Positions 26,043 through 52,847 of a stretch of 64,000 nt of DNA are shown here, one piece after another; position 1 is the first letter of the stretch; each line of letters begins with the position of its first letter. A program made the translations under genes and the position numbers. Source of the stretch: Treponema sp. (GTDB lineage Bacteria > Spirochaetota > Spirochaetia > Treponematales > Treponemataceae). The notes beneath the pieces were generated by a model. That model saw only the letters and a program-made list of their open reading frames with translations, searched no databases and was not told the origin of the DNA. The DNA lies in contig JAGCWT010000113.1 in the NCBI GenBank assembly GCA_017961705.1, positions 8,681 to 72,680 of the forward strand, written 5' to 3'.

Positions 26043-26051
26043 AGGAAAAAT

Positions 26052-31757: not shown

Positions 31758-31779
31758 TTTTTATAATCCAAATTTTTTG

Positions 31780-34076: not shown

Positions 34077-34106
34077 TCGGAACTTCCTTAATTGTAAAAG
34101 GTGAGG

Positions 34107-35123: not shown

Positions 35124-35290
35124 AATATCTTTCTACGACAAAAAATCTTTAACAATATTTTAACATAAATTTCAAAAAAAGCAAAGTATATGAGGTTTGA
35201 CAGATTTAAAATTTTAAGTTACTTTATTCATTGTATTAACACAATATGGCAATGTAATGACTGTCAATTCTAATCAAATAGAGGTGTTTT

Positions 35291-36295: not shown

Positions 36296-36335
36296 CAGAA
36301 AATATCAGAACCTGAAAACCAAAAGATAAATTTTA

Positions 36336-38051
36336 TTAGAATTTATATTCTACTCCTACTTGAAGTATGTTGTTGTATCGGTGATTTGAGTTCCTGTCTA
36401 CTCTGTCATTCTTGTATATTGGATTATGTTCATCTTCAAATACATATTTTCCTGTTAAAATGATATTCTTAGAAATAAATTGTGTTATATCTATTCCAAA
36501 ATCTAGTGTTGCACGTATATTTCTTTCTGCGGTATTAGGTTCGGCTTGATTTTTTGAAGCAATATACATTGTATAATCTAAATCAGGATTTCGTCGTTGT
36601 CCGAATAGAGTTACAGAACCTTTTGGATGGAAGAACTCAAATCCCAAATATTGACTGTTTCCTCCTGTTCCTATACCTGCTCCAAGCCATTGCCCCCTAT
36701 TTGTGTGTCCTTGTGTAATTTCACTATGACTATAGAATGTTGTATACCAATTTATAAGTCTGTCATAATCAGCAGAGTTTTCAAGATAGGTTAATTCCAA
36801 TAAGACTTTTAATCCGTATTTGGGAGAAAAGTTAAATGCTTTTTCTGCTCCGAATGTCCAAGCTTGTGTGTGGAATGGGTAGCGAATTATGTAATCCATG
36901 TCTGGGGAGAAATCATTTCGAGCCCATTCCAGATATACTTCAAAACCAGCTTTTTGAAGGGTATAGTCAAATATAAATGAAAATCTCTGATCCGCAGCGT
37001 CATGGCCGCCATCCATTTTTGGAAGAAAAACTCTAGTTAATGAATACGATGAAATTTCATTCCATTTAGAGAGCATTATTCGGTTGAATCCTATAGAAAG
37101 GCCGTCAAAGATTCCGGGAAACGCGTAGTTTGCTGTCATTCCAGCAATCAAATTGCTGTCGTTGTTGGTGTCGTTATCAAAATAATCAGACTCGGTAAGT
37201 TTTCCCCACCATGCACGACCTTCAACGTCACCAAGATACCAGCCAAAATATGGCATGTAAATTGCTGTTTTCCTCAAGCCAACGTCTGCTTTGGGATAGC
37301 TTGGAGCATTGTTTGAGTGAATAATGGGGTTGAGTTTTGCAGGACCTAGCCAGATTGCCTGTGTTCCAACTCCTGCTGTTAAATTGTGCCATGTGTAGCG
37401 AATTTCTGTGTCGCCCCAATCATAGGTAAAGAAAGCTTTGTCACCAAATCTTTGAGGGGCATCAATAAATTCTACTCCATAGTATCCATAAGTATCAGCT
37501 TTTCCGTTATATATTGTAAAGTTGTTGTTTTCATCAACAGTTGGATAATTTGGTTTGATATAATCAAATTCCCTGTTCTGCGAAAAGCTTAGTTGGGGTT
37601 TGAAGGTTGCTTCCAGCCCGTAGGCTTCGAGGCGGGCACCGGCGGTAAGGCTTGTGTTGTAGCCTTTGCCTTGCCAGAGGGCACCGTCGTTTTGGCCGTA
37701 GGGGGCTGCGGTGTTGTAGCTGTTGTACCATTCAGGGCCGTAGACTTTTACTTTTACGCTCTGGTCTATTCCGCGGGTAAAGAAGTTGTCAGTTTTTTGA
37801 GCTGGCTCATAGACTGTCCATTTGGAGCCAAGGCTGTTGTTTTTCCAGACGTTTTCATCGGCTGTTTTTGCTTCTTCGGTCAACGTCCATTCGTTGTCGC
37901 TTAGCGTTCGGTAGCCCAGGGTGGGGCGTCCGACAAGACCCTGCAGGCTTAGAAAGTCGTAGTATTCTTCTTCCGTGCTTTTTAGGGCTTCCTGAGAAAG
38001 AATTGATGCACATGAAAGCATGGCTGCAAAAAAAGTATAAAGTCTTTTCAT
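36336..38051 (-). CDS. Capsule-assembly Wzi-like outer-membrane protein
   Basis: Signal peptide; PYGQNDGALWQGKG, WLGPAKLNPIIHSNNAP, GQWLGAGIGTGGNSQ; terminal VGVEYKF. Confidence 0.8.
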   Translation of the reverse strand: MKRLYTFFAAMLSCASILSQEALKSTEEEYYDFLSLQGLVGRPTLGYRTLSDNEWTLTEEAKTADENVWKNNSLGSKWTVYEPAQKTDNFFTRGIDQSVKVKVYGPEWYNSYNTAAPYGQNDGALWQGKGYNTSLTAGARLEAYGLEATFKPQLSFSQNREFDYIKPNYPTVDENNNFTIYNGKADTYGYYGVEFIDAPQRFGDKAFFTYDWGDTEIRYTWHNLTAGVGTQAIWLGPAKLNPIIHSNNAPSYPKADVGLRKTAIYMPYFGWYLGDVEGRAWWGKLTESDYFDNDTNNDSNLIAGMTANYAFPGIFDGLSIGFNRIMLSKWNEISSYSLTRVFLPKMDGGHDAADQRFSFIFDYTLQKAGFEVYLEWARNDFSPDMDYIIRYPFHTQAWTFGAEKAFNFSPKYGLKVLLELTYLENSADYDRLINWYTTFYSHSEITQGHTNRGQWLGAGIGTGGNSQYLGFEFFHPKGSVTLFGQRRNPDLDYTMYIASKNQAEPNTAERNIRATLDFGIDITQFISKNIILTGKYVFEDEHNPIYKNDRVDRNSNHRYNNILQVGVEYKF

Positions 38052-38265: not shown

Positions 38266-39207
38266 TTATTTTGTCATTTCCTTTACAATAAATTTAGGCT
38301 GCTTGTTTACCGTAAGATATACCTGCCCAAGGTACTTCCCTATAATTCCCAGTGAAACGAGTATTAAGCCGCCTAAAACCAGAATCAATATGACAATTGT
38401 AGTCCAGCCGGTAACATCTGCCTTTCCTGTAAAATACTGAACTGCATATATGATGGCAAGGACAAGTCCTACTACTGCACTGAAAAATCCTGTATAAGAA
38501 GCAAGGTTCAAAGGCATGGTAGAAAATCCAAAAAGCATGCGCATAAAAACTTTTATTGATTTTATAAGATTGTAGTTTGACTTTCCAAGTTCCCGCTTGT
38601 GGTGTTCGATGTCAATCTGAGTAATGTTTCTCGTTACCTGAAAAATCAATCCGTCAATATAGGGAAAAAGGTTGTTGAACTTGCACATCTCTCTTACAAC
38701 TTCACCATTTACAATTTTAAACGGCGAAAGGTATATCCCTTTTGGCTTGTCCAATGCAATCTCACTTATTTTTCCGTTGAACCATGAGCCTAGGTTTTTC
38801 CAGAGCTTTTGTTTTTTTGCCTCAAAGTTGGCATAAACAACATCAAAACCTTTCTTTGCTTCTTCGTAAAGCTTTGGGATATCGTATGGAGAATGCTGAA
38901 GGTCGTCATCCATTATGACAACCCATTTTCCGCTCACATAGTTCAATCCAGTAAGGATTGCGCTGTCCTGGCCACCATTTTTGCGCAGGTTTATTCCCAG
39001 AAGATTTGGATTTTTTGAAGCTTCTTTTTTTATTTCGTCCCAGCTTGAATCCTTTGAACAGTCATTTACCATTATCTGTTCATAGCTGATTCCTGCTTTT
39101 GACATGGAATCTGCAATCTGACGGCTTAGTTCCGCAACACACTCATGACTGTTGTAAACAGGGATGACAATGCTTATTTCTTTTTGGGAATCTGTATTTA
39201 TGCTCAT
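38266..39207 (-). CDS. Polyprenyl-phosphate glycosyltransferase (ArnC/GtrB-like GT2)
   Basis: ISIVIPVYN, VNDCSKD, RKNGGQDSA, MDDDLQH; two C-terminal TM helices. Confidence 0.9.
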   Translation of the reverse strand: MSINTDSQKEISIVIPVYNSHECVAELSRQIADSMSKAGISYEQIMVNDCSKDSSWDEIKKEASKNPNLLGINLRKNGGQDSAILTGLNYVSGKWVVIMDDDLQHSPYDIPKLYEEAKKGFDVVYANFEAKKQKLWKNLGSWFNGKISEIALDKPKGIYLSPFKIVNGEVVREMCKFNNLFPYIDGLIFQVTRNITQIDIEHHKRELGKSNYNLIKSIKVFMRMLFGFSTMPLNLASYTGFFSAVVGLVLAIIYAVQYFTGKADVTGWTTIVILILVLGGLILVSLGIIGKYLGQVYLTVNKQPKFIVKEMTK

Positions 39208-40352
39208 TTGTAGAACTCCAGAACAGCATCAATTACTTTCTGCTGGTCACTCTCTGTAAGACCATAATAGAGTGGCAGACGGACAAGACGTTCTGAATAG
39301 GGAGTCGTAACCTCGTCTATTGCATCAAAGCGTCCAAATTTAATTCCTGCTGGACTTGAGTGAAGCGGAATATAGTGGAATACAGCAAGAATGTCATTTT
39401 TCCGCATGAATGAAATAAATGACGTGCGCTCTTTGATATCCTTTGTAATCAGATAGAACATGTGGGCATTGTGCTGGCAATCCCTTGGGATGACGGGCAG
39501 ACGAATTTTTCCCTGCTTTTCCAAATCAGCAAAGGCTGACTTGTATTTATTCCAGATTTTCATTCGTGAATTCTGAATCTCATCTGCCATTTCAAGCTGC
39601 GCCCAAAGATAGGCTGCATTCAAATCACTTGGAAGGTAAGATGAGCCGTAATCACGCCAGGTATATTTATCAACCTGTCCCCGCAAGAAACGGCTCCGGT
39701 CAGTTCCTTTTTCGCGGATAATCTCTGCCTTTTCAAAGTCATCGTTGTTTGTATTGATTATAATTGCACCGCCTTCTCCCATTGAAAAATTCTTTGTCTC
39801 ATGGAATGAAAAACAGCCGTAGTCACCGATTGTTCCCAGTGGCTTTCCCTTGTAAAAGGAACATACAGCCTGAGCCGCATCCTCAACGACTTTTAGATTA
39901 TGCCGCAGGGCAATGTCCATTATTGTGTCCATTTCGCAGGCAACCCCCGCATAGTGAACCACACAGATTGCTTTTGTCTTGCCAGTAATTGCCCTCTCGA
40001 TTTTTGTCTCATCAATATTCATCGTGTCCGTCCGTACATCGACAAAGACAATTTTAGCTCCGCGTTGAACGAATGCATCAGCCGTAGAACAGAAAGTAAA
40101 AGACGGCATAATTACCTCATCTCCAGCTTTTATATCGCAGAGAAGGGCCGCCATTTCAAGGGCTGTGGTTCCGCTTGTGGTAAGGAGGACTTTCGACGAT
40201 TTCCCTCCAGTAGTAGAATTTAGCTTTTCTTCAAACCACGCATGACATTTTTTCGTAAATTCACCGTCACCACAAATCTTGTGATTCTCGATTGCTTTCT
40301 GAATGTATTTTACTTCGTTGCCAGTTACAGGCGGAACATTAAAATGTATCAT
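39204..40352 (-). CDS. wecE: dTDP-4-amino-4,6-dideoxygalactose transaminase
   Basis: FNVPP, CGDGEFT, VVEDAAQ, FSFHETKN, EKGTDRSRFLRGQVDKYTW, AVFHYIPLH. Confidence 0.92.
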   Translation of the reverse strand: MIHFNVPPVTGNEVKYIQKAIENHKICGDGEFTKKCHAWFEEKLNSTTGGKSSKVLLTTSGTTALEMAALLCDIKAGDEVIMPSFTFCSTADAFVQRGAKIVFVDVRTDTMNIDETKIERAITGKTKAICVVHYAGVACEMDTIMDIALRHNLKVVEDAAQAVCSFYKGKPLGTIGDYGCFSFHETKNFSMGEGGAIIINTNNDDFEKAEIIREKGTDRSRFLRGQVDKYTWRDYGSSYLPSDLNAAYLWAQLEMADEIQNSRMKIWNKYKSAFADLEKQGKIRLPVIPRDCQHNAHMFYLITKDIKERTSFISFMRKNDILAVFHYIPLHSSPAGIKFGRFDAIDEVTTPYSERLVRLPLYYGLTESDQQKVIDAVLEFYK

Positions 40353-40360
40353 GATTATTT

Positions 40361-40393
40361 ATTCTAGCAAATAAAGTTTTTTTTTGCTATACT
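40361..40393. promoter_or_regulatory. Overlapping symmetric divergent promoters with T9 in the shared spacer
   Basis: Plus: TAGCAA(40365)-17 nt-TATACT; minus: TAGCAA(40389)-17 nt-TAGAAT; both -10 boxes have an upstream TGn. Confidence 0.6.
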
Positions 40394-40406
40394 ATTTAAA
40401 AGCTAT

Positions 40407-40778
40407 ATGAAAAAGCATAACAAACTCTTTCCTTTTCTCTTCATGCATTTAGCCTTTCTCGTTTACACGCTATACCCGCTTTTGGGTAAGTTTGCCACAC
40501 GGTATGACTTTTTTTCCTTACAGTTCATCGTACTTTACTGTGTGGTTTTTGCAATTCTCTTTTTGTATGCCATCCTCTGGCAACAGGTTTTAAAATACAT
40601 ACCTCTTACAACAACAATCGCAAACAAGTCTATTACTATTATCTGGGGTATGATTTTTGGGCTACTGTTCTTTAATGAAAAAATCACGCCAAAAATGCTT
40701 GTTGGAGCGGTCCTAATTCTTTCGGGAATCCTTATTCTATGCACTGAAAAAGAAAAATTGCAGGAGAATGCAGCATGA
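40407..40778 (+). CDS. EamA/SMR-like small transporter (ArnE/F-like flippase subunit)
   Basis: Four TMs; WQQVLKYIPL, FFNEKITPKMLVGAVLILSGI. Confidence 0.85.
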   Translation: MKKHNKLFPFLFMHLAFLVYTLYPLLGKFATRYDFFSLQFIVLYCVVFAILFLYAILWQQVLKYIPLTTTIANKSITIIWGMIFGLLFFNEKITPKMLVGAVLILSGILILCTEKEKLQENAA

Positions 40779-41110
40779 TTTTATACAGTGCAATCCTGAT
40801 TTTTTCGGTATTTATCTCGGCATTTTCACAGGTTCTCTTAAAAAAATCTGCCCTAAAAAGCTATGACTCTTTCATTCGGGAATACGTTAATATTTATGTC
40901 GTTCCGGCCTATGCAATCTATTTTTTGGCGGTTTTTTTGGATTTAATTGCACTTCGGAAAGTTCCTGTATCTTTCGTTCCGGTAGCCGAAGCTTCCAGCT
41001 ATGTTTTTGTGCTTCTGTTCGGGCGCATTTTCTTTAGGGAATCTTTCTCTAAGCGGAAGGTTCTTGCGATGGCTTTAATTCTTGCGGGGATTATTGTGTT
41101 TGTGATATAA
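40775..41110 (+). CDS. EamA/SMR-like small transporter (partner subunit)
   Basis: SQVLLKKSA, FFRESFSKRKVLAMALILAGI; ATGA overlap with the previous gene. Confidence 0.85.
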   Translation: MILYSAILIFSVFISAFSQVLLKKSALKSYDSFIREYVNIYVVPAYAIYFLAVFLDLIALRKVPVSFVPVAEASSYVFVLLFGRIFFRESFSKRKVLAMALILAGIIVFVI

Positions 41111-41157
41111 TTCAATTTCTAATTGAAACAAAGTTTTATTTATGATATTCTAATACT

Positions 41158-42882
41158 ATGTCTCGGTTTGTACTATTTCCTACCATTAAAAAAAACACTG
41201 GCATTTTATTGTCAGTGTTTTTTATTCTCTTATTGTTTGTAATACTTTTCATAAATAATTTTTATACATTTTGCTGGTCAGACGAGTCCTTTTACATTTC
41301 GTCTATTCATCGTCTTATAAATGGAGACTGCTTATTTACAGACGAATGGCACCCAACCCTGTTTTATGAACCGCTGCTTTTGCCTTTTTACTATTTATAT
41401 ATTTTTATTACAGGTGGAACGGAAGGAGTTTACCTTGCAGCCCGCACTGTTCAACTTTTCCTAAGGCTTTTTACTTGCTTTTTTTTGTATTTCACACTTC
41501 GGGAAAAAAATGGAAATTTTCCGGCTGTGGTTACTGCAATTCTGCTTATGCCTTTTTTGCGAGCAAACATAAAAGGATTAAGTTATTATGCCCTATCTTT
41601 AGATTTCTTTATAATTGGAATTTTATGTCTTTATAATTTTTATATTGCACGGGAAAAGCTTATTCTAACTTTTATTGCAGGATTGTTTTTTTCATTTACA
41701 GTTTTATGCAATCCATTTACTGCCTTTGTTTATATTGGTTATTCAGTATGGTATCTCATAAGGTCAATACGAAGAAATGAAAGTATAAAACCAATCCTCC
41801 TTGTCTGGGGTGGAACAGTTTTTGCAGCTGCCTCTTATATCTTATATTTGGCTACAACAAGTACAATTACCGGATTTTTATCTAGTTTTCACAATATTTT
41901 TGAGACACCAAATTATCAAAAATCATCGCTTTATGATGTTTTGATTTTTCCACTAAATAAATATATAACAAACTTGTTAAAGCCATATAAATATACGCTC
42001 CCATTTTTTATTGTTGCTGTAATTACGCTGCTTGTATTAAAAATTAAAAAAATAAGACCAAGTAAAAAAATTAAGTTTACAATATTTGTACTAAACTTAA
42101 TTTTTTTTATCTACAACTTGAAGGTAAAGAAAAGTAATCCTGGTTCCACTTTTGTTGCGCTTGCATTTTTTACATGCATATTTATTCTTCTTTATCAAGA
42201 CAAAATTTTTGATAAAACTAAACATATCCTTTTTTTTGTGATTCCAGGAATTCTTTTTTCTATTGCATGGTCATATTGTTCGGATACGAGTTACACTGTT
42301 TTTACAATTGGGTATGCCGTGGCAATGCCTGGTATGATTTGTTTGATTTTTGAACTTAGCCAAATTGTTTTTTCAAAAAATAAACAAAGATGTATTTTTC
42401 TTGCATTGTTTTTTTGTTTGATGATAACAATGTCCTTGTTTCAAAGATTTCATTATATTTATCGTGATGGGAAAAATTCTGAACTTGTATGTAAAATTGA
42501 AAATGGGCCAGCGAAAGGACTTTTTACTACAAAAATTCGAAAGCAAAAATATGATGAAGTCTATAAAACAATTTCAAAAATTTCAGATAAATATCCGAAT
42601 AAAAGTATTTATATAACACCTATGATTCCTTGGTCATATTTACTTTTGAATACTAAATATTCTGGTCCTTCTACGTGGCGTGGATATCTTGATGATTATC
42701 AAATATATAATTACTTTGAAAAAGACAATCATCCATACCCTGATTTGATTTTAATGACGAATGAAGAATACACCATTGATTCGCCTTATAAAATTCCTCA
42801 AACAGAATATGCTAACACGCTTTTAAAAAAATATGAAAAAATATCTCTGTCCATAGGGGAGCTTTTGGTACGAAAGGAATGA
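41158..42882 (+). CDS. Polytopic GT-C-fold glycosyltransferase (ArnT/GtrC-like)
   Basis: WSDESFY acidic motif after TM1, many further TMs, soluble C-terminal domain. Confidence 0.65.
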   Translation: MSRFVLFPTIKKNTGILLSVFFILLLFVILFINNFYTFCWSDESFYISSIHRLINGDCLFTDEWHPTLFYEPLLLPFYYLYIFITGGTEGVYLAARTVQLFLRLFTCFFLYFTLREKNGNFPAVVTAILLMPFLRANIKGLSYYALSLDFFIIGILCLYNFYIAREKLILTFIAGLFFSFTVLCNPFTAFVYIGYSVWYLIRSIRRNESIKPILLVWGGTVFAAASYILYLATTSTITGFLSSFHNIFETPNYQKSSLYDVLIFPLNKYITNLLKPYKYTLPFFIVAVITLLVLKIKKIRPSKKIKFTIFVLNLIFFIYNLKVKKSNPGSTFVALAFFTCIFILLYQDKIFDKTKHILFFVIPGILFSIAWSYCSDTSYTVFTIGYAVAMPGMICLIFELSQIVFSKNKQRCIFLALFFCLMITMSLFQRFHYIYRDGKNSELVCKIENGPAKGLFTTKIRKQKYDEVYKTISKISDKYPNKSIYITPMIPWSYLLLNTKYSGPSTWRGYLDDYQIYNYFEKDNHPYPDLILMTNEEYTIDSPYKIPQTEYANTLLKKYEKISLSIGELLVRKE

Positions 42883-43099: not shown

Positions 43100-43527
43100 T
43101 TATTCAAACCAGTTTTCCATCATTAGCGGGGAAACTTCTTGGATGGGTTCAAAGTGCTTGGTGTTGCGGGTTACCAGGACCATGTTGTTTGAGACTGCAA
43201 TGGCGGCAATTTGCGTGTCCTGGAAGTCAATAGGGGTGCCTTTCTCTTCTAGGCGTTGGCGGATGTCTGCCTGAATCCAGGCCGCGTGGTTGTCGTACTA
43301 TATGATTGGGTAGTTGGCTTGAATGTCGTCGATTAAGTCGGAGAATAGCAAATCCTTCTTTTTTCCACTGGGCATACGCTGTACACCGAAAAGAAGTTCA
43401 TTCCATGTTGTAGAAGAAATTCCGCAAAGTTTTTCACGTGCTTCTGATTGAAAGACACATTCTGGTTGGGATTTGCCCTCATTAGTTCTGATACGATATT
43501 AGTGTCTAGTAAATAGATAGGATTCAT
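43100..43527 (-). pseudogene. vapC: VapC/PIN-domain toxin pseudogene
   Basis: YLLDTNIVSE start; frameshift near codon 24; the alternative frame gives ISSTTWNELLFG...YPII-TAG(43298-43300)-YDNHAA...FQDTQIAAIAVSNNMVLVTRNTKHF...ENWFE. Confidence 0.88.
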
Positions 43528-43856
43528 TCTTCTGGAACCTCCACATCATCAAAAATATGCTCAGCCCCGGGACGACCAAAGTAATTTCTGTCGCGCAGGC
43601 TGTCAAAATATTCGGTGTAGTCAAAATTGTCGTCTTCAAGACCATATTTTTTTCGATTGTCCTGTAGCTTTTGCGCCAGGCTTTTTTGGGGCATGCTTGT
43701 TGCCTTCATTTCGTCATAGTCAGATTTTGAAATAATGTAGGCCACTTCCTGATTGTAGCGGGTGATTGGAACCGGACCTTCGGTTTCTGCCATGTGGATG
43801 AAAAATGGAAGCTTGTTCTTTGCTTCAAAAACGGGAACTGCATTGCACATAGACAC
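43524..43856 (-). CDS. Phd/YefM-type antitoxin
   Basis: VFEAKNKLPFFIHMAETEGPVPITRYNQEVAYIIS; ATGA overlap with vapC. Confidence 0.85.
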   Translation of the reverse strand: MSMCNAVPVFEAKNKLPFFIHMAETEGPVPITRYNQEVAYIISKSDYDEMKATSMPQKSLAQKLQDNRKKYGLEDDNFDYTEYFDSLRDRNYFGRPGAEHIFDDVEVPEE

Positions 43857-44134: not shown

Positions 44135-45379
44135 TCAGCTGAGCTTTTGCACTGTTTCTATCATGAAGTCGGCGGTGCGTTTTCCGGCTTCGCCTATGTG
44201 CTGCCAGGCCTGGGCTTTTGCGCTTGCACGGCGCTGCTTTAGTTCCGGGCTGTCGGAGGCGTTTTGGATTACGTCCTTTATGCGGCCAAAGTCTTTTTCT
44301 TCCAAAAGGATACCGCAGTTTTTAAGTGTCTGCATTTCCCAGAGGCCTTCGTAGTTTTCACCGTGGATGTCGTAGGCATCGTAGGGCAGGAGGTCCATTT
44401 TGCTTGCGGCATAGATAACAGGCTTGTCGCAGAGGAAGGTGTAGTCGAAGATGATGCCGGAGAAGTCGGAGATCATGATGTCGGCTTTTTTTAGCGAATA
44501 GATGTTGTCGCGCTCGTAGTCCCAGGTGACGTTTGCCTTGTCCTTGTAGCGTTCCGTAAGTTTGTTAAGCATTTCCGCTTCTGAGATTTTTGACTGCGGG
44601 TGCGGGCGGATTATGATGTTGAACCCTGTTTGGATAAGTGGGTCTAAGAGGCGTTCACCATAGAGCGAAAGGAGGGCGCTTTTTCCCCATGACGGAGAGA
44701 CGAGAACCGTGTACTGGTGGTTTTCTTCGGCTGGTATTTCTGCAATCTTTTTTTGGAGCACGTCCAGGTAGGTGCAGCCTACTGTTACAAGCTCTTTTGC
44801 AGGAAGGTTACGCTGCTTTTCCAGGATGCGTATGTCTTCTCCTGAATAGTCGCCGGTTAGCAAGACGGAATCAAAGAAGTCTAGGCCAAAGAGCCTGTAC
44901 ATTGAAGAGTCGGTGGTTGAATGGAAGATGTGGCAGTAGTGCTTTACGTTTTTGCTGCGCTTCCACTGGTAGACGTTTACGCCGGGCGTTGTGCAGACAA
45001 GGATTCCTGCGCTCATCATGTTGAGTTTTGCATAGGCGGAGTTTCCAGTTCCTATGACTTCCGGTTTTACGTACTTGAAATTCTGGCTAAAAACCGGGTC
45101 TTCGGCGGACGAGACGTAATAGGTGATTTCCGTTTCGCGCTTTTCGAATTCCTGTAGTACAGGGAGGAAGACGTTCCAGTAGCGGCGGTCTTCACAATAA
45201 ATTACGTACTTCTTATATGAAGAATCCTGAATTACACCGTTCTTTTTGCCGGAGATTAGCACTTTTAGTTTAATCCAGACTGCCTTTGAAAGAAAGAACA
45301 GTGTGGTTGCGGCTCCAATCAAGATTGAAAAGAGCATGCTTCCCGTTCCAGGGTCAATATAAAGGAGCATAAGGTTCAT
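44135..45379 (-). CDS. CDP-glycerol:glycerophosphate transferase family (TagB/TagF-like) protein with an N-terminal YIDPGTGS anchor
   Basis: HIFHS, VLVSPSWG, IIRPHPQ, ADIMISDFSGIIFDYTFLCDKPVI. Confidence 0.85.
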   Translation of the reverse strand: MNLMLLYIDPGTGSMLFSILIGAATTLFFLSKAVWIKLKVLISGKKNGVIQDSSYKKYVIYCEDRRYWNVFLPVLQEFEKRETEITYYVSSAEDPVFSQNFKYVKPEVIGTGNSAYAKLNMMSAGILVCTTPGVNVYQWKRSKNVKHYCHIFHSTTDSSMYRLFGLDFFDSVLLTGDYSGEDIRILEKQRNLPAKELVTVGCTYLDVLQKKIAEIPAEENHQYTVLVSPSWGKSALLSLYGERLLDPLIQTGFNIIIRPHPQSKISEAEMLNKLTERYKDKANVTWDYERDNIYSLKKADIMISDFSGIIFDYTFLCDKPVIYAASKMDLLPYDAYDIHGENYEGLWEMQTLKNCGILLEEKDFGRIKDVIQNASDSPELKQRRASAKAQAWQHIGEAGKRTADFMIETVQKLS

Positions 45380-45395: not shown

Positions 45396-47366
45396 TTATT
45401 TTCCTAAAAATTCTTTTATAAGGTTGAATGCCTTGTCCATCCACTCTTTTGGTGCAACAGTTACGCGCATTGCAAGCTGTCCGTTTTCCGTCCACAGGCG
45501 TACGAGGATGCCATTCTGCGCAAGGTAGTCCTTGAGCTTTTGCGTGTCTATTGAATTGTCAAAATGAATGAAGACAAAGTTTGCGGCAGATTTGAATGCC
45601 TTTACGTTTGCAAGCGTATTCATCTGGGCAATAAAGTTGTCCCTTATTTGGGCGGTTGTCTTTGTAAGGTTATCGTAATAAGCCTTGTCCTGCAAAGCGG
45701 CGACTGCTGCCTTTCTGCCGAGGTTGCTTACGCGGAAGGGGTTAAGATCCAGTTTGAAGACCTGCTTTGCCATTGGTGCGCACAGTCCGTAGCCAATGCG
45801 GACTCCTGCAAGGCCATAGAGTTTGGAGAAGGTTCGGCAGAAGACAACGTTGTTGTAGGAGTTCAAGAGGTGCTTTGCGTCGATTTTTTCGGAAGAGAAT
45901 CCCAAGTAGGCTTCGTCTATGATTACCAGAGAAGACGGGTTCTGCTTTACGATTTTTTCTACATCGGTCTGGCTCATGACTGCGCCGGTCGGGTTGTGGG
46001 GTGTCGTAATTACGATGATTCTTGGGTTCGTTTCGCGGGCCTTTGATAGGAGGCCTTTTACGTCAAATTCGTATGAATCTTTGCCGGGCTTGATTTCGTA
46101 GTATGCGGCCTTTGCAAAGTGGAGTTCCACTACGGACTTGTAGTAGTTCCATGCGGGGGCGGAAATGAGTACCGTGTCGTCCTTGTTGAGTACAAGGGTC
46201 ATTATTGTCTTTATGACATCGGATGAACCTGAGTGGACAAAAATGTTGTCTGTAGGAAGGTCCAGCATCTTTGAGACTTCAAGGGCAAGTTCATCTTCGC
46301 GGGTAAGGTCGTAAAGGCACAAGTCTTCCATCTTGGCATTGTGGAAAACTTCAAGGCATTTTGGGGATGCACCAAAGAGGTTTTCGTTTACGTGCATGCG
46401 GCCTGTAAGCTGTTCTGTTGCGACTACTGAGTACTGCTTAACGTCTGTGTAGTTTGAAAGGTAGGAGATGCGCTGGGTGCTGTTTACGAATTCTTCTTCC
46501 TGGAAGAACTGGTTTACAAATTCCTTGAAGCTTGGGTTGAATTCGATGATTTCTTCCGTTGTGTCGAATTCCTTGCATTCAGCATCTGTTGTCTTGCGGA
46601 TTTTCATGTTGAGTACATCGATGTGCTTTGCATAGAAGTGGTCCCAAAGCATGTACTTCATTTCTGGATCGTAATATTCCTTAACCATAAGGTCTTTGAA
46701 GGTGTCGGAAAAGTCTTTGCGCCAGAATGATTCGCCTATGATGTACCAGCTTTTTTCACCGCCGCGCTTTACTTCGCGCATGTAGCCGTTTTTGTCAAAA
46801 GCCTTTACGCAGTCTTCATTGATGAATTCATCAGAATATTTGGCGGCATAGTATGAGTCGTAAACGTAGTCGCGGTAGACGTTGTGGGCAAACCAGTTGT
46901 CCGAGCAGCAGATGTAGGAATTTTTTATATAGTCCTTTGCGGCATACAAAGAAGATATGTTGTTTTTTTCCTGCCATTCTTCGTTGTCGATTACAATCAG
47001 TTCAGGATATTTTTTTGCCATTTCGTAGTATTTTTCTTTTAGATAGCCTACGACGATTACGATTTCTTTGATTCCCGCATCGTGCATCTGCTTAATCTGG
47101 CGCTCAACCATTGTGTCGCCCCTTATTTCGAACAGGCCTTTTGGAAGGTAGTTGGAAAGGGGCATGCATCTTCTGGAGCGTCCTGCCGCCATAATGATTG
47201 CATTGTCTACTTTATATGGAGCAAGTGCTTCGTAGCCTGAATCTGTGATTTTATTGCCGTCAGTCCAGCCGTTCTTTTGGCAAGCCTGCTTGAGTTCATC
47301 AGAAAAAGATGAGGTGTCATTCCTTTTGTGGACTGCATACAAATATTCAAATTCCTGTTCGGTCAT
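45396..47366 (-). CDS. Fusion of LicC-like sugar/alcohol-phosphate cytidylyltransferase and class I/II PLP enzyme (HisC/CobD-like)
   Basis: NAIIMAAGRSRR..PKGL, VVGY, NNISSL, CSDN; then NEN, PHNPTG, IIDEAY, RTFSKLYGLAGVRIGY. Confidence 0.88.
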   Translation of the reverse strand: MTEQEFEYLYAVHKRNDTSSFSDELKQACQKNGWTDGNKITDSGYEALAPYKVDNAIIMAAGRSRRCMPLSNYLPKGLFEIRGDTMVERQIKQMHDAGIKEIVIVVGYLKEKYYEMAKKYPELIVIDNEEWQEKNNISSLYAAKDYIKNSYICCSDNWFAHNVYRDYVYDSYYAAKYSDEFINEDCVKAFDKNGYMREVKRGGEKSWYIIGESFWRKDFSDTFKDLMVKEYYDPEMKYMLWDHFYAKHIDVLNMKIRKTTDAECKEFDTTEEIIEFNPSFKEFVNQFFQEEEFVNSTQRISYLSNYTDVKQYSVVATEQLTGRMHVNENLFGASPKCLEVFHNAKMEDLCLYDLTREDELALEVSKMLDLPTDNIFVHSGSSDVIKTIMTLVLNKDDTVLISAPAWNYYKSVVELHFAKAAYYEIKPGKDSYEFDVKGLLSKARETNPRIIVITTPHNPTGAVMSQTDVEKIVKQNPSSLVIIDEAYLGFSSEKIDAKHLLNSYNNVVFCRTFSKLYGLAGVRIGYGLCAPMAKQVFKLDLNPFRVSNLGRKAAVAALQDKAYYDNLTKTTAQIRDNFIAQMNTLANVKAFKSAANFVFIHFDNSIDTQKLKDYLAQNGILVRLWTENGQLAMRVTVAPKEWMDKAFNLIKEFLGK

Positions 47367-47427: not shown

Positions 47428-50151
47428 TTAGTTTTCAATATTAGCTTCTGTCCAGCTGGATGCCTTAAGAACGTCGTCTTTTACACGCCACCACTGGTTT
47501 TTGCGGACCGGGAAGGTGTAGTCGCCCTGCATTAGCCAAGCCTGATGCACGTCACTGCAGCTTATTATGACGCCGTCTTTTTTTATGGAAGAAGTGTCCA
47601 GCGGTATTTTTTTGTTTGTAAATGGGTTTACCGGGTCTTCCACGATTCCGTTCAGGGCAATAGATGGAACGTCTCCATTTGTCATGAAAGTTCCGTCGGT
47701 TTTTAGGGAGCCTGTCTGGTTAAAGTCTTTTACCATAAGCAGGGGGTGGAAATGTCCGCGGCCAGTGTACCTGTCGCCGGCAATTTTTTCGTCCAGGGCA
47801 TCGTCTTTTTCCATGCAGTCTTCATAAGTTGTACGGCTGTGGTCAGCTGCTATTATGATGCGGGTGTTGTCGTAAACGCCCTGCTGCTTTAGGTAGTCAA
47901 GCCACTTTGCAATCTGTTTGAATGCCGCCATGTTTGTATGGTAGGCCTCTTCATTCTTAAAGCGGCTCTGGCCCTTGTTTGTAATTTTTTCTGAAGGAAC
48001 ATAGTCTGGTGCCTGCATGAAAGTGGATGAATGGGTAAGTTCATTTACAATGCAGATGTAGGAGCCCGAATTGGATTCTTCCGTAACTGTTAGTTCTGGG
48101 AGGAAAGAGAGGGGGGCATAGTTGTCTATTATGTTTGTGTAAGATGTAACGTTGTCGTCCGTGTTCCAGTACTTTCCCTGCTGATAGATTATTTCCCTTA
48201 CGATTGCGGGGCTTGTTCGGAAAAAGCTAAAGAAGAGCATGTTGCGCTTTAAGAGTTTTTCCGTGTTGTCAAGTCCGGAGGATTCGCGGTGGGCTTTGTA
48301 CCAGGCGCTTGAATATTTGCCAATTGTCTGGTAACCGGAAATTTTTTCGTAGGGGTCTGTTATTGTAAGGTCTGCATAGGCATTGTAGTTTGCCCAAGAA
48401 GGGTCTGTTATGGTTGCGGAAAAGTCTGCCTGTTCTGTAAAAATGCGGGGCAAAAGCAGCAGGGCTTCGTTGTTCTTTTTGTAGAGAAGTTCGTCTTTTC
48501 TTTTGTTCATCTCCAAGGGGGCATATTCGTATCCGCCGTAAACAAGGGGGGCTCCCATTAGCGTGTGGCCGTTAAAAGAGAGTGTGTTCTTGTAAAGGGT
48601 AAAGCCGGAGAATGATTCGTTAAAAGAAGGGTCTTCCTTGAACATTTCTTCCGCATACTGGTTTTCCGACCGGTCAAGCATAAAGACTATGACGTTCTGC
48701 TTGTTTTTTGAAAGCTTAAAAATCGGTTCTATTTTTGCAGAGTCGGTTCCGCTTATCTGGAGGAATTCCTTGTACTGCTTTTGAATCGTTGCTGTGTTTA
48801 TAAGGGCCAAAGCTGTAACGGCAAAGATTAGAAGCGAAGTTAGGCTGCAGTGGATTTTTGCCTTCTTGAAAGGAATTGTGAATACTATTGCAAGGAGCAG
48901 AGCAGCCAATACAAAGAGGTTCAGCAGGCTTGGCATTGAAATAGTTCTGAAGTTTACCGCATTCAGGAAGGTGAGCGTTGCGGAGACATCCCCATAGTTC
49001 AGCATAAAGAAGAATGAATTTACAATGGCACTTGCGGCTATCCAGCACATAAACGCAGAAAGCAAAGTCTGAATCTTTTTGTTGAAGAGGAAGTAGACGC
49101 ACAAAGGCCAGAAGAGGAAAAATCCTGCCGACTGGGTTAAAACCGTCTTTATGTAAAAGAGGGGATTTGGATGTTCGCCGAGCCCTGAAAATTCAATTGG
49201 TGAAGAGGAAACCAAGGCCGCCGGAATGGAAAGGCCTGCAAGTACAAAAAGCAGGACGCAGGAAAGGATGTAGAGGGAATTCCTTGTTTTTCTTGATTCA
49301 GCAAGAACTTTGAGCGGGCCTCCGATAAGCTTGTTTGCAAAACGGATAAAGACTGGGGCTAGGAATATGCAGGCAAATACCAGCATTGCCACCAGGGTGT
49401 AGGAGAATTTTATCTTTAGCCTAAACAATATGTAGGCAAGGAGTATTACGCAGATTGCACAGCATAGAATCCAGAATTTCTTGAGGGGGTTCTTGAGTTT
49501 GTAGAAGATGTTTTTTACCAGGCTGAATATGTTGTTGAATGTCCAGTAAAGAACAAGGCCTGCCGGTGAGTCATAAAGAATGATAAGGAAGATGGCCGCC
49601 ATTATATAAATCTGAAGCTTTTCCCTAAGCCCGTGACCCTTTGAATAAATTGCGCCGGATATGCAGTTTATTAGCGTCATTGCGATTGGCAAGATGTTTA
49701 CGGAAAATGCCCCTATTGAAAACAAGGCGTCCGGTGCACCCATGTCGCGGATGAAGAGGAAGCTTTCTCCGTTCAAGTCGCTAAGATGAGAAAGATAGCT
49801 GTAAGCGGCAAGGAAAAAGGGAACCTGAATTAAAAGGCCGAATGATGAGCGTAGTGCCATAATTGGGCTGTAATGCTGCTGGCGGTAGAAAGTGGACGTC
49901 ATCATGTAGCGTTCATCGCCAGAAAATGCCTTTTTTATGCGTTCAAGCCCGGCTTTCATTTTGCCCTGTTTTTCGCGCTCAACTTCCTGCCAGTGTTCGG
50001 CAACGGCATAAAGCGGAAGGCAAAGGATTGTAATTCCAACGGAAACACAAATAACTGCCAGTCCTTCGTTATGGAAAAATTTCTTGGAAATGGCATAGAT
50101 AATTTCTATTATTGTATAGAGAGGATAGATTATCAGGTTGTATAGCAGCAT
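47428..50151 (-). CDS. YidC/Oxa1-like domain fused via TM region to an LtaS/EptA-like (alkaline phosphatase superfamily) domain
   Basis: LCLPLY, LLIQVPFF, FLFIRDMGAPD, NILPI, PAGLVLYWTFNNIFS; then NVIVFMLD, GHT, ELTH, YDNTRIIIAADH. Confidence 0.85.
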   Translation of the reverse strand: MLLYNLIIYPLYTIIEIIYAISKKFFHNEGLAVICVSVGITILCLPLYAVAEHWQEVEREKQGKMKAGLERIKKAFSGDERYMMTSTFYRQQHYSPIMALRSSFGLLIQVPFFLAAYSYLSHLSDLNGESFLFIRDMGAPDALFSIGAFSVNILPIAMTLINCISGAIYSKGHGLREKLQIYIMAAIFLIILYDSPAGLVLYWTFNNIFSLVKNIFYKLKNPLKKFWILCCAICVILLAYILFRLKIKFSYTLVAMLVFACIFLAPVFIRFANKLIGGPLKVLAESRKTRNSLYILSCVLLFVLAGLSIPAALVSSSPIEFSGLGEHPNPLFYIKTVLTQSAGFFLFWPLCVYFLFNKKIQTLLSAFMCWIAASAIVNSFFFMLNYGDVSATLTFLNAVNFRTISMPSLLNLFVLAALLLAIVFTIPFKKAKIHCSLTSLLIFAVTALALINTATIQKQYKEFLQISGTDSAKIEPIFKLSKNKQNVIVFMLDRSENQYAEEMFKEDPSFNESFSGFTLYKNTLSFNGHTLMGAPLVYGGYEYAPLEMNKRKDELLYKKNNEALLLLPRIFTEQADFSATITDPSWANYNAYADLTITDPYEKISGYQTIGKYSSAWYKAHRESSGLDNTEKLLKRNMLFFSFFRTSPAIVREIIYQQGKYWNTDDNVTSYTNIIDNYAPLSFLPELTVTEESNSGSYICIVNELTHSSTFMQAPDYVPSEKITNKGQSRFKNEEAYHTNMAAFKQIAKWLDYLKQQGVYDNTRIIIAADHSRTTYEDCMEKDDALDEKIAGDRYTGRGHFHPLLMVKDFNQTGSLKTDGTFMTNGDVPSIALNGIVEDPVNPFTNKKIPLDTSSIKKDGVIISCSDVHQAWLMQGDYTFPVRKNQWWRVKDDVLKASSWTEANIEN

Positions 50152-50153
50152 AT

Positions 50154-52847
50154 TTATTCTCCAAACGGGAAAATTTGTTTCCAGTTTTCGTTTTTTGTTA
50201 TGTCTCCGCTTACCGTATACCAGTCGTCATTAGAGATAATCAACTTTGTATGCTCACGGTTACGCGTACTTTCTGCATTTGGGTGACAAATTTTTACGAA
50301 TTCATCTTTGTTGGGAAGGTCGTATTCAAGCCCAGTGAAGGGATTTTTTGCGTTCGGGAAAATATCCCTTGTTGCAATTGCCGGGGTGTCTGCATTTGTC
50401 ATAAAAGAGAAGTCCTTTGTAAGGTGGATTCCGTCCGGGCTGGGGCGGCGGTCGTTAAAGTCTTTTACGATAAGGCTTGCAGTTACGCTTTCTTTTGGAT
50501 AGGGCGGCTTGTCGGACTTTTCAAATTTGCCTGTGTCAATGTATGTTCCGTGGTCAGAGACTATGATGATGCGGGTATTGTCGTACAGGTCGTTTTCTTT
50601 TAGCCAGTCAAAGAATTTTGCATAGCAGCGCAAGGTTCCTGCCTGTGTGTTGTACTGGGCGTTTTTTGCCCATTTTGAAGGACCTGTCTGCGTAACATCT
50701 TTTACCGGTATGTAGTCCGGGTACTGAAGCCTGCTGGGTTCGTGAGTGGAAAGGTTGTCTATCATGGTGAAGGTGCTTTTTTCTGCTGAACCGTCAAACA
50801 TTTCCGGGAAATAGATAAGGCATGAATAGTTGTCTATAAACTGGGAGAAGTGGTCTTTGCGGCCGTTTGCATTCCACCAGCGCTTGTGATGGACCAAGCG
50901 TCTTAAAACTGGAGGGAAGGTCTTAAAAATACTGAACATGATGAAATTGTGCTTTATGCTTTCGCTTATGTAATTGGTCTTTTCTATGCCGTTTTGTTCA
51001 TACCAATAGTCTGAATATAGGCCTGTCGTTAAAACACGGTTTATGTCCGGGTAGTCTTTGTACATGTCGGTAACAGGTTCTTTGCCAAAGTTTTCGTAGG
51101 GCATGTCGGAAACAGTTGCTTCCCAGCCGTTTTCCATAAAAGTGACTGGCATGGAAAGGATAGATTCGTTGTGCTTTTTCTGCAAAGTTTCCGTATCCCT
51201 TTTGTTCATCTCTGCCGGAGTAAAGCTGTAGCCGCCAAATATTCCCGGTACGCCAACCATTGTAAGCGAACCAAAAGAAACAGTGTTAGGATAGAATACA
51301 AAGCCGTCAAAATGTTCCACCAGTTCCGGCTTTTCTTCAAACACTTCGTCTATGAGCGGAGAAAAGAGCCTGTCCTGCATAAAGACAATTACGTTTTTGC
51401 CTGTTTTGGAAAGATGGTACACAGGTTCAATCTTGGAAATTGTCTGCTTTTTTTCCATATTCAGGTAGGCCTTGCTGACAATTGAAATATTGCGCAAAGA
51501 AACGGTTGTTAGGCAGATTGCTGCAATGATAAAGATGGGCGAAAGTACTTTAGACTTTTTCGTAAGCACAAAAACTATGGCTGCAAAAGCTATAAGGGCT
51601 ATAAGGGCATTTAATGCGATTTGCCACAATGGTGCCGAGAAAAACTGTGCTTCCATAAAGTCAAGGTTTTCGGTAAGCGGTCCGTATGAACCGGTAAAGG
51701 CAAAGTTGTTAACGAGTGCATATACGGCAAGGAATGCTGCCATAAGAGTTAGGATTTTCTTTATCTTTTTTCCGAACAGGGCATAAAAACAGACTGGCCA
51801 AAATACGTAGAAGCCAAGTCCCTGGTAGAAGGCTGTCCTTAGGAATATGAAAGGAGACGTGTATTTGTCTACGTAGCAGAATTCCTGGGGCTCACTTTCT
51901 ATAAGCATGGAAGGAATCGTAAGGCCTGTTAAAAGGGCGATTGTTAGCGAAGAGAAAATGAATATGCAAAGCCTTGTCTTTGGGGACCGGTCTATGTCTG
52001 TAAGCATGTTGTCCAAAAGCCAGTTTACAGCCTTGATGATTAAAGGGGCAGCCGCAATGATGATGCAGATTAGGGCAAGCATTGCACGGAGTTCGATTTT
52101 TCTCTTCTGCATTGCAAATATGGCTACGAGTATACCGCAGATGCATGCCGCAAGTGCTATTCTGTAAAGCACTTTGACCGGATTCTTGAACTTGTAGAAG
52201 ACGTTTTTTACCAGGGAAAGCAGGTTGTTCATTGTCCAGTACATTACAAGTCCAGCCGGAGAATTGTAGAGTATTACAAGAAAGACCAGTGCGGAAACGT
52301 AAATCTGAATTTTCTCGCGTTTGTCTTTGTGGCCGTAGGAATAAATGGCACCGGAAACGCAGTTGATTATAGTCATTGCGATGGGAAGAACATTCACTGT
52401 GAATGAACCTATGGAAAACATTGCGTCTGGGCTGCCCATATCCCTTATGAACAGAAATTTTACTCCGTTAAGGTTGGGCAGGTGGGACAAGAATGAATAT
52501 GCCGCCATAAAAAAGGGAATCTGAATCAAAAGGCCGAATGAAGAGCGAAGGGCCATAATAGGGTGGTAATGGTGCTGGGTATAAAAAGCGTTCAGCATCA
52601 TGAATTGCTCGTCACCCTTGAATGCTTTTTTTATGCGCTTAACGCCGGGTCGCATGCTGTCTTCCAGAATTCTTTCTTTTTCCTGCCAAGATTCGGCTAT
52701 TATGTACAGCGGAAGGCAACAAAGCGTTACGACAAAGCTTAGTCCTATTACAGAAATTCCTGAACTTCTAGTTAGTTCTTCAAAAAAAAGGTAAAAAATT
52801 TCAAGAATTTGTTTTATAGGATAAATTACTAAATAATAGAAAAGCAT
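50154..52847 (-). CDS. Second YidC/Oxa1-LtaS/EptA-like fusion (tandem paralog)
   Basis: CCLPLY, LLIQIPFF, FLFIRDMGSPD, PAGLVMYWTMNNLLS; NVIVFMQD, SLT, STHEP, YDNTRIIIVSDHG. Confidence 0.85.
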   Translation of the reverse strand: MLFYYLVIYPIKQILEIFYLFFEELTRSSGISVIGLSFVVTLCCLPLYIIAESWQEKERILEDSMRPGVKRIKKAFKGDEQFMMLNAFYTQHHYHPIMALRSSFGLLIQIPFFMAAYSFLSHLPNLNGVKFLFIRDMGSPDAMFSIGSFTVNVLPIAMTIINCVSGAIYSYGHKDKREKIQIYVSALVFLVILYNSPAGLVMYWTMNNLLSLVKNVFYKFKNPVKVLYRIALAACICGILVAIFAMQKRKIELRAMLALICIIIAAAPLIIKAVNWLLDNMLTDIDRSPKTRLCIFIFSSLTIALLTGLTIPSMLIESEPQEFCYVDKYTSPFIFLRTAFYQGLGFYVFWPVCFYALFGKKIKKILTLMAAFLAVYALVNNFAFTGSYGPLTENLDFMEAQFFSAPLWQIALNALIALIAFAAIVFVLTKKSKVLSPIFIIAAICLTTVSLRNISIVSKAYLNMEKKQTISKIEPVYHLSKTGKNVIVFMQDRLFSPLIDEVFEEKPELVEHFDGFVFYPNTVSFGSLTMVGVPGIFGGYSFTPAEMNKRDTETLQKKHNESILSMPVTFMENGWEATVSDMPYENFGKEPVTDMYKDYPDINRVLTTGLYSDYWYEQNGIEKTNYISESIKHNFIMFSIFKTFPPVLRRLVHHKRWWNANGRKDHFSQFIDNYSCLIYFPEMFDGSAEKSTFTMIDNLSTHEPSRLQYPDYIPVKDVTQTGPSKWAKNAQYNTQAGTLRCYAKFFDWLKENDLYDNTRIIIVSDHGTYIDTGKFEKSDKPPYPKESVTASLIVKDFNDRRPSPDGIHLTKDFSFMTNADTPAIATRDIFPNAKNPFTGLEYDLPNKDEFVKICHPNAESTRNREHTKLIISNDDWYTVSGDITKNENWKQIFPFGE

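Follow-up and report, generated by a model that had tools for sequence, protein, structure and literature searches.

The fusion gene P0001

We analysed a 64,000-nucleotide stretch of a Treponema sp. contig (JAGCWT010000113.1, assembly GCA_017961705.1, forward-strand positions 8,681 to 72,680), hereafter called the window, with attention to the gene P0001. P0001 is a single unbroken open reading frame (ORF) of 656 amino acids on the minus strand, in which a LicC-like cytidylyltransferase (nucleotidyltransferase, NTase) is joined to a pyridoxal 5'-phosphate (PLP) domain of the HisC/CobD family. As judged from its sequence, P0001 is probably a bifunctional, kinase-independent synthase of a cytidine diphosphate (CDP)-linked amino alcohol, in which the product of the PLP domain would be activated by the NTase domain for transfer by an enzyme of the TagF or LicD type. 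The gene and its parts, in window coordinates, are as follows.

45396..47366, minus strand: P0001, winged-helix-turn-helix (wHTH)-like domain, LicC-like cytidylyltransferase and HisC-like PLP domain (ORF, profiles, AlphaFold2 model)
47217..47366, minus strand: N-terminal domain of P0001, residues 1-50, ~50 amino acids, three-helix, winged-helix-like (predicted local distance difference test score, pLDDT, 92-95)
46512..47207, minus strand: LicC-like nucleotidyltransferase domain of P0001, residues ~54-285 (1JYK and family alignments)
46449..46511, minus strand: flexible interdomain linker of P0001, residues ~286-306 (pLDDT <50, weak conservation)
45399..46448, minus strand: HisC/CobD-family fold-type I PLP domain of P0001, residues ~307-656 (profiles, alignments, structure matches)

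In Pfam, P0001 matched NTP_transf_3/NTP_transferase at residues 56-168 and Aminotran_1_2 at residues 359-638 (E 3.5e-45). The AlphaFold2 model, built on 37 family members, had a mean pLDDT of 85.9, and low confidence in the NTase domain was confined to a mobile glycine-rich loop (residues 63-82). The winged-helix-like N-terminal domain was also found in LicC-LicA relatives, and the corresponding region of the relative P0131 matched HTH_24/MarR. Databases carry P0001 as a histidinol-phosphate aminotransferase or under a generic class I/II aminotransferase name, and a protein-feature cluster search with P0001 returned generic aminotransferase clusters only. The domain matches of P0001, together with the match of the adjacent TagF-like gene described below, are beyond chance level.

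The cytidylyltransferase domain

Residues 55-272 of P0001 aligned with the whole of Streptococcus pneumoniae LicC (1JYK) over 218 residues (92 bits, E 4e-25), and LicC was the top PDB match of the N-terminal half. When a library of 1.8 billion proteins was searched exhaustively, the closest relatives of this half were LicC-LicA (choline kinase/APH) fusions of ~590 amino acids. A first reading of the window, made from the letters alone (the sequence-only reading), had assigned this half to the LicC part of such fusions, and the alignments bear it out. The G-x-G-x-R...K nucleotide signature and the acidic metal ligands (LicC D107, D192, E216, and D218) of the LicC-type fold were all present, and R66, K76, D156, D242, E266, and D268 were invariant across 37 family members.

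The head-group pocket was different. In LicC, W136 and Y190 form the aromatic box around the trimethylammonium group, and D105 also has a described role there (PMC6697681). In the NTase family of P0001, W136 was replaced by Asp or Tyr, Y190 by Leu, Met, or Arg (Leu in P0001), and D105 by an invariant Cys (C154). A choline kinase/APH domain was absent from P0001 and its operon (Pfam), the PLP domain filling the kinase position, and neither licA nor licB was found near P0001. Thus, P0001 resembles S. pneumoniae LicC/LicCA in fold, nucleotide-binding signature, and metal ligands, whereas the aromatic box is changed and the choline kinase partner is swapped for a PLP domain. A choline-type LicC was rejected for P0001 since the aromatic box is lost and there is no choline-kinase partner. 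Reading a head group from the pocket was rejected as well, since pneumococcal LicC and the nearest LicC-LicA relatives are themselves unlike each other at some of these positions. The residues of the pocket would therefore rule out the classical choline box without naming the substrate.

The PLP domain

The PLP half scored 225.1 bits against hisC TIGR01141 (227.7 in a second run; cut-off 276.55) and, as the next best, 147.2 bits against CobD TIGR01140 (cut-off 290.55); the ratio of the two scores cannot classify the reaction type, since all relatives score higher on hisC, including a short group presumed to be CobD-like. The Schiff-base lysine, K515 in the motif RTFSK (codon 45822-45824), aligned with K214 of Escherichia coli HisC. 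Therefore, the earlier description of the C-terminal half as HisC/CobD-like with an intact PLP lysine stands. In the Foldseek comparison of the P0001 model with the PDB, histidinol-phosphate aminotransferases ranked first (TM-score ~0.85, target-length normalised), and CobD structures appeared at about rank 49-50; the best sequence matches of the domain were likewise all HisC.

Nine residues of E. coli HisC (Y20, D184, Y187, T211, S213, K214, R222, R322, and R335) were invariant in the aligned fusions, Y312, R623, and R634 of P0001 being the counterparts of the phosphate binders Y20, R322, and R335. N157 was retained in the Treponema fusions and was Met in some divergent members. The imidazole positions were replaced throughout the clade, D85 by Ser or Ala, Y110 by Trp, and Y243 by Phe; in E. 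coli and Corynebacterium glutamicum HisC, these three residues reportedly bind the imidazole. Residues specific to the clade were W406, F544, R545, and R551 in P0001. R545 stands in place of HisC P244, beside the replaced imidazole positions, and R545 and R551 sit in a loop that reaches the neighbouring active site. From the alignment, R545 may be equivalent to Arg292 of aspartate aminotransferase. The P0001 domain thus shares with HisC and CobD the fold (TM-score ~0.75-0.87, target-length normalised), the PLP lysine, and two phosphate/carboxylate arginines, but differs from them in falling below both NCBIfam cut-offs, in S/A85, W110, and F243, in the extra R545 and R551, and in its surface-glycan context.

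The same genome encodes a true HisC on another contig (C54), which passed the TIGR01141 cut-off with 295.6 bits. In the tree, the fusion PLP domains formed a clade of their own, apart from the one containing E. coli HisC and the C54 protein. The HisC identity was rejected for the sub-cut-off score, the changed imidazole pocket, the separate clade, and the true HisC elsewhere in the genome; the CobD identity was rejected for the score of 147.2 bits and the lack of cob genes in the operon or the related loci. The PLP domain is neither a HisC nor a CobD equivalog but represents a distinct accessory clade in surface-glycan contexts.

These results bear on the plainest explanation of P0001, namely that two unrelated housekeeping activities have been fused, a true HisC and a phosphocholine cytidylyltransferase (or, as a variant, CobD and a CobY-like enzyme for cobamide synthesis). 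hisC is indeed the top-scoring named family, LicC is the top PDB match of the N-terminal half, and the database annotation is histidinol-phosphate aminotransferase. Nevertheless, both equivalog cut-offs were missed, both binding pockets were altered (the imidazole pocket of HisC as well as the choline box of LicC), and the gene was accessory (5 of 30 sampled genomes of the genus) and never lay in his or cob operons. We consider this explanation hardly conceivable. The sequence-only reading had named a true HisC with a phosphocholine-only NTase as its opposite, and on the residues and scores given above that opposite does not hold.

The operon and the TagF-like gene

P0001 is the third gene of an apparent four-gene operon that starts with P0004 (P0004, P0003, P0001, P0002). 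The other three genes are listed below.

50154..52847, minus strand: P0004, 897-amino-acid polytopic protein with a YidC/Oxa1-like N-terminus and a C-terminal domain of the sulfatase/alkaline-phosphatase superfamily (LtaS/EptA-like) (profiles)
47428..50151, minus strand: P0003, 907-amino-acid polytopic membrane protein with a YidC/Oxa1-like N-terminus and a large C-terminal domain (Pfam/NCBIfam; paralogue of P0004)
44135..45379, minus strand: P0002, TagF-like transferase (Glyphos_transf) anchored to the membrane by its N-terminus (PF04464; 35 bits, cut-off 22)

P0002 begins 16 bp downstream of P0001, and its PF04464 match confirms the adjacent TagF-like enzyme of the sequence-only reading. A PDB sequence search with P0002 gave nothing significant, and its homologue search found close Treponema relatives only, under generic names. 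P0003 and P0004 are tandem paralogues in which a YidC/Oxa1-like domain (residues ~1-220) is followed by a polytopic region and then by the C-terminal domain. To our knowledge, a YidC-LtaS-like fusion has not been described. The YidC-like part might be a scramblase for a lipid or a lipid-linked donor that serves the transferase domain on the outer face; the roles proposed for these proteins derive from their domain content and conserved linkage. HAD and methyltransferase domains were absent from the four operon genes (Pfam), and a promoter/terminator scan of the operon gave counts not above those of shuffled sequence. Just 3' of the operon lies a 110-amino-acid ORF with a Phd/YefM antitoxin domain (43524-43856, minus strand), by which a perfect sigma-70-like promoter match was found (43902-43874).

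Distribution and conserved context

One genome per prokaryotic species was scanned, and a relative of P0001 was encoded in at least 222 of these stretches (species genomes). The best 80 of the 222 were examined as loci, 57 of Treponema type and 23 from Lachnospiraceae; some of the Treponema-type loci lie in metagenomic bins that carry other taxon labels. The source organism of P0001 is a rumen or gut Treponema, and the T. succinifaciens homologue is ~71% identical to P0001. Cultured carriers are T. succinifaciens, T. pectinovorum, T. berlinense, T. parvum, T. zioleckii, Acetatifactor muris, and Lachnospira hominis.

A TagF-like gene lay within 8 kb of the fusion in 54 of the 57 Treponema loci, and the three exceptions were contigs that end inside the fusion gene. 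Together with the TagF-like gene, the fusion was accompanied by one or two YidC/Oxa1-sulfatase (LtaS/EptA-like) proteins of ~900 amino acids, a linkage seen in nearly all Treponema loci. The gene order varied among Treponema species, a pattern that speaks for selection acting on the module. In Lachnospiraceae, LicD was directly upstream of the fusion in all 23 loci, and the cassette was often placed inside flagellin or surface-glycan glycosylation loci. LicD was likewise adjacent in all four of the divergent metagenomic homologues (41-45% identity), and the unfused members of the PLP clade, P0128 and P0132, had an overlapping stand-alone NTase gene just upstream. The fusion loci were never his or cob operons, the contexts being surface-glycan ones throughout. 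The conserved core is the NTase-PLP partnership and its link to a phosphotransferase that uses CDP-X, where X is the activated head group. No kinase, phosphoenolpyruvate (PEP) mutase, or other substrate-making gene common to the Treponema and Lachnospiraceae contexts was found.

Upstream of LicD and the fusion, the Lachnospiraceae cassette can carry further genes. In locus L086 (4356-6418), a protein of 445 amino acids joins a TagD-like domain (CTP_transf_like) to a GFO/IDH/MocA oxidoreductase, and this TagD-like-GFO/IDH/MocA fusion was upstream in 17-18 of the 23 Lachnospiraceae loci (L086-L108). A GDPD glycerophosphodiesterase gene followed it in 13 of the 23. Directly 3' of the LicC-HisC-type fusion, 18 of the 23 had a methyltransferase-like gene of ~337 amino acids (a weak match, 21-22 bits, below the cut-off). 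In the 57 Treponema loci, GFO and GDPD genes numbered zero, no methyltransferase was detected, and a TagD-like match was present in L081 only.

The TagD-like-GFO/IDH/MocA fusion raises the possibility of a reversed order of reactions, in which the oxidoreductase would oxidise C2 of CDP-glycerol to CDP-dihydroxyacetone and the HisC-like domain would transaminate it to CDP-serinol, the fused NTase making or binding the CDP substrate. A GFO-type dehydrogenase paired with an aminotransferase is a classical route to amino sugars on nucleotide carriers. However, the 57 Treponema loci lack GFO and GDPD and hold that single TagD-like match, and no TagD equivalog was found in the P0001 genome (88% complete). 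Moreover, the full LicC-like catalytic set implies direct activation of a phospho-monoester. Amination at the CDP level is thus a quite improbable account of P0001.

Several further genes were observed near individual homologues. CotH kinase-like, VTC-domain, and DUF4956 genes recurred within a few kb in L015, L017, and ~15 other Treponema loci, and in L017 the CotH gene lay between two YidC-sulfatase genes. By a divergent fusion homologue (L009:10080-15395) there was a pyruvate dehydrogenase (PDH)-like set with a fused E1 alpha-beta, a lipoate-protein ligase, and an E3; in its "E2", a lipoyl domain is joined to a PglD-like hexapeptide acyltransferase that replaces the usual catalytic domain. 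This set might serve to N-acylate an amino substituent in a lipoyl-dependent manner.

Comparison with known systems

The closest solved architecture is Tde1415 (PntC-AEPT) of T. denticola (6PD1/6PD2), an NTase-aminotransferase fusion in which PntC is joined to a substrate-making aminotransferase (PMC6697681). 6PD1 was the sole two-domain match of the P0001 model in the PDB. Both proteins come from spirochaetes, both combine an N-terminal LicC-like NTase with a C-terminal PLP domain of fold type I, which in Tde1415 makes, and in P0001 would make, the amine to be activated, and P0001, like Tde1415, would feed surface decoration of the LicD type. Tde1415 differs in that its PLP domain is of class V (PhnW-like), whereas that of P0001 belongs to the class I/II HisC family (13-14% identity); in that its phosphonate substrate needs PEP mutase and phosphonopyruvate decarboxylase; and in that it has no wHTH-like N-terminal domain. 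The partners of P0001 are instead a TagF-like enzyme and YidC-sulfatase proteins.

Given this parallel, we weighed whether P0001 might be a phosphonate-tailoring enzyme of the PntC type, with the HisC-like domain replacing the class V transaminase for 2-aminoethylphosphonate (AEP) and with CMP-2-aminoethylphosphonate as the product. Besides the architecture, the LicD partners speak for it, being typical of phosphonate tailoring loci (PMC6697681). However, PEP mutase (PF13714) was not found in the P0001 genome (88% complete), nor in four of the five cultured carriers searched, among them T. parvum with its complete chromosome, and the fifth had one unlinked match. The genus also has separate class V aminotransferase ORFs of ~620 amino acids, which we read as Tde1415-like, for that role. 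Candidate phosphonopyruvate decarboxylases near L009, L010, and L012 were rejected, since NCBIfam placed them as acetolactate-synthase-like or PDH-E1-like, those near two divergent homologues being acetolactate-synthase-like; thiamine pyrophosphate enzymes were absent from the 80 genome loci and are thus not a conserved partner. The phosphonate route is very improbable for P0001, and it was rejected as a general explanation because PF13714 was essentially absent from the genomes searched.

ORFs of ~615-642 amino acids with a class V aminotransferase domain were observed in eight genomes of the same genus (G007, G013, G014, G016, G017, G021, G026, and G030) and are probably Tde1415-like PntC-AEPT fusions. 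On contig C34 of G016, such an ORF lies ~8 kb from a HisC-type fusion, so both fusion types can share one surface locus.

The second comparison is with FtaABCD, the type A flagellin modification system of Clostridioides difficile (PMC10714395; bioRxiv 10.64898/2026.02.12.704994). There, the LicC-like FtaB makes a CDP-activated amino compound from a phospho-substrate supplied by the dedicated enzyme FtaA, its predicted complex partner. The TagF-like FtaD then attaches the compound to the glycan as a phosphodiester substituent. The placement of a LicC-like NTase gene beside a TagF-family gene recurs in P0001/P0002 and is kept in the Treponema loci. By contrast, FtaA is an unfused HAD-type phosphotransferase and not a PLP enzyme, the donor is CDP-(N-methyl)threonine, and the system includes the methyltransferase FtaC and belongs to a flagellar locus; the Treponema operon, which has no HAD or methyltransferase gene, has YidC-sulfatase proteins. 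Neither precedent figured in the sequence-only reading. Taken together, the Tde1415 and Fta analogies suggest that P0001 most likely makes a phospho-amine and then a CDP-X for TagF-like or LicD transfer.

A phospho-amino-acid route closer to the Fta system can also be drawn. The PLP domain would make or interconvert a phospho-amino acid, for example phosphoserine from 3-phosphohydroxypyruvate and glutamate, the NTase would yield CDP-serine or CDP-threonine, and the TagF-like enzyme or LicD would transfer it. CDP-threonine, the LicC-like FtaB, and the TagF-like FtaD are established (PMC10714395; bioRxiv 10.64898/2026.02.12.704994), R545 and R551 in the loop to the neighbouring active site could bind an extra anionic group, and the methyltransferase-like gene that follows the fusion in Lachnospiraceae recalls FtaC. 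Nevertheless, a second phosphoserine aminotransferase would be redundant with the universal SerC, an FtaA-like HAD is absent from the Treponema operon, and the methyltransferase match, weak and below its cut-off where it occurs, has no counterpart in the 57 Treponema loci. We therefore regard this route as improbable.

Both chemistries that we propose for the PLP domain have precedents in the capsule decoration of Campylobacter jejuni, where Cj1437 converts dihydroxyacetone phosphate (DHAP) to (S)-serinol phosphate and Cj1436 converts O-phospho-L-serine to ethanolamine phosphate (PMC11800397). Both are PLP enzymes whose substrates are central metabolites and whose products are small amino-alcohol phosphates. 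They differ from P0001, by their published description, in that an ATP-dependent amide ligase couples the products to glucuronate before these are dephosphorylated, with no CMP activation.

Proposed pathway and identity of the product

In the pathway that we propose, the PLP domain would turn a phosphorylated compound of central metabolism into a small phosphate bearing a primary amine, most likely by transamination of DHAP with L-glutamate to (S)-serinol phosphate. The LicC-like domain would then couple serinol phosphate with cytidine triphosphate (CTP) to give CDP-X, here CDP-serinol, with release of pyrophosphate. In Treponema, the membrane-anchored TagF-like enzyme would transfer phospho-X to a glycan or lipid at the inner membrane face, and we infer that the two YidC-sulfatase proteins would handle the product on the outer face; in Lachnospiraceae, LicD would take the TagF-like role. 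The order of the reactions, X, and the acceptor are all given here as the likeliest choices. That the substrate would be a central or common metabolite follows from the lack of a substrate-forming gene common to the Treponema and Lachnospiraceae contexts. SerC was present in all 31 same-genus genomes searched, so both candidate precursors, DHAP and phosphoserine, should be available.

The sequence-only reading had proposed a single-protein, kinase-independent route to CDP-ethanolamine, CDP-aminopropanol, or CDP-serinol. The coupling of phospho-amine synthesis to CMP activation is upheld by the catalytic residues and by the pairing of the two domains in >200 species, whereas the choice among the three donors is beyond what the sequence can make. 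As to X, we would place serinol somewhat short of an even chance, the remaining products taken together behind it (a CDP-amino acid, amination at the CDP level, aminopropanol, and others), and ethanolamine behind these.

Serinol appears modestly favoured on several grounds. Firstly, the PLP domain is HisC-like and not CobD-like by its score, its structure rank, and its N-terminal Tyr arm (Y20 of HisC, Y312 of P0001), which is kept here, along with both phosphate arginines, and is lacking in the aligned shorter group of 340-350 amino acids presumed to be CobD-like. Secondly, DHAP resembles the keto substrate of HisC with a hydroxymethyl group replacing the imidazolylmethyl group, and the imidazole pocket is the part that has been remodelled. 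Thirdly, the TagD-GFO fusion and GDPD of Lachnospiraceae point to glycerol-phosphate chemistry on the same C3 skeleton, and in Treponema the partner enzyme is itself a member of the CDP-glycerol transferase family. Finally, R545, if it is structurally equivalent to Arg292 of aspartate aminotransferase, would speak for a transaminase.

Several points weigh against serinol. The sequence gives no residue determinant that splits transaminase from decarboxylase in the P0001 family, and the head-group pocket of the NTase gives no clear substrate read-out. Phosphoethanolamine is far commoner on glycans than phosphoserinol, and we know of no report of phosphoserinol as a glycan substituent. R545 and R551 could instead bind the carboxylate of a phospho-amino acid, and the TagD-GFO fusion raises the alternative of amination on a CDP-linked ketone. 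Furthermore, the TagF-like FtaD of C. difficile uses a CDP-amino-acid donor (bioRxiv 10.64898/2026.02.12.704994), and a TagF-like partner alone therefore does not imply a glycerol-like donor. This takes away part of the earlier argument that CDP-serinol fits the TagF-like neighbour; the Lachnospiraceae glycerol-phosphate context and the HisC-like arm give serinol modest support.

The main single rival is ethanolamine. A CDP-ethanolamine synthase would decarboxylate O-phospho-L-serine, supplied by SerA and SerC, in its PLP domain, form CDP-ethanolamine in its NTase domain, and let the TagF-like enzyme or LicD add single phosphoethanolamine caps to glycans. Metabolically, this decarboxylation would be just as feasible as the transamination, SerC being universal in the genus, and CobD-type decarboxylases share the fold and the phosphate-binding arginines. 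Such a pathway would require no further gene and would fit the minimal cassette of LicD and fusion. Phosphoethanolamine is a common glycan substituent (PMC6697681), Cj1436 gives a precedent (PMC11800397), and SMUL_1544 is named as a decarboxylase of the same type. On the other side, the domain is nearer to HisC than to CobD (225 against 147 bits, and by structure rank), the HisC Tyr arm that the short presumed CobD-like group lacks is kept, and the glycerol-phosphate gene context of Lachnospiraceae would be left unexplained. CDP-ethanolamine is therefore unlikely, although it has more in its favour than the other rivals discussed above.

Returning to serinol, the pathway can tentatively be drawn in full, a version that we hold as possible but doubtful. 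CDP-serinol would be made from DHAP, glutamate, and CTP; in Treponema, the TagF-like and YidC-LtaS-like proteins would build a serinol-phosphate substituent or a poly(serinol phosphate), and in Lachnospiraceae, TagD-GFO and LicC-HisC would give CDP-glycerol and CDP-serinol for LicD. If this were true, a diderm spirochaete would have, in poly(serinol phosphate), an amino counterpart of glycerol teichoic acid.

Other surface loci in the window and the genome

Beyond the Phd/YefM ORF, the window contains an Arn-like lipid-linked amino-sugar module (38266-42882), with the genes listed below.

38266-39207, minus strand: GT2 ArnC-like gene
39204-40352, minus strand: DegT/ArnB-type aminotransferase
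40407-41110, plus strand: two half-size EamA proteins, ArnE/ArnF-like
41158-42882, plus strand: 574-amino-acid protein with no Pfam match

The 574-amino-acid protein could be an ArnT-like transferase. Further upstream in window numbering, an island of low guanine-plus-cytosine content (~24000-36300; 0.29-0.35 against 0.40-0.48 in the flanks) holds polysaccharide genes, among them two MBOAT acyltransferases, GT1, GT2, two Stealth-family hexose-1-phosphoryl transferases, GDPD, a Wzx-like flippase, and a PIG-L deacetylase, and is followed by a Wzi-like protein (36336-38051). The island is probably a horizontally acquired phosphoglycan or capsule locus. On another contig of the same genome (C245; L023:3249-8038), there is a separate canonical CDP-ribitol-type cluster with an IspD/TarI-like cytidylyltransferase, a TarJ-like dehydrogenase, a 638-amino-acid LicD-GT2 fusion, and a TagF/TarL match of 232 bits.

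Significance

In the literature that was searched, no description of an NTase-HisC-like fusion and no mention of CDP-serinol was found. Fusions in which a cytidylyltransferase is joined to the maker of its substrate and supplies a LicD or TagF transferase follow a known logic; the different PLP family, the non-phosphonate substrate, and the new partners are new here, and P0001 may make a new CDP-activated metabolite. The identity of the product would extend the short list of CDP-activated non-sugar donors, which comprises choline, ethanolamine, glycerol, ribitol, AEP, and threonine, and would offer a way into the function of the unexplained YidC-sulfatase fusion proteins. As a signature gene, P0001 marks an uncharacterised pathway of surface decoration that at least 222 species genomes of Treponema and Lachnospiraceae from rumen and gut encode. 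Knowing the product would also predict which new charged group the envelopes of spirochaetes and the glycans or flagellins of Lachnospiraceae carry, structures that face the host immune system and phages.

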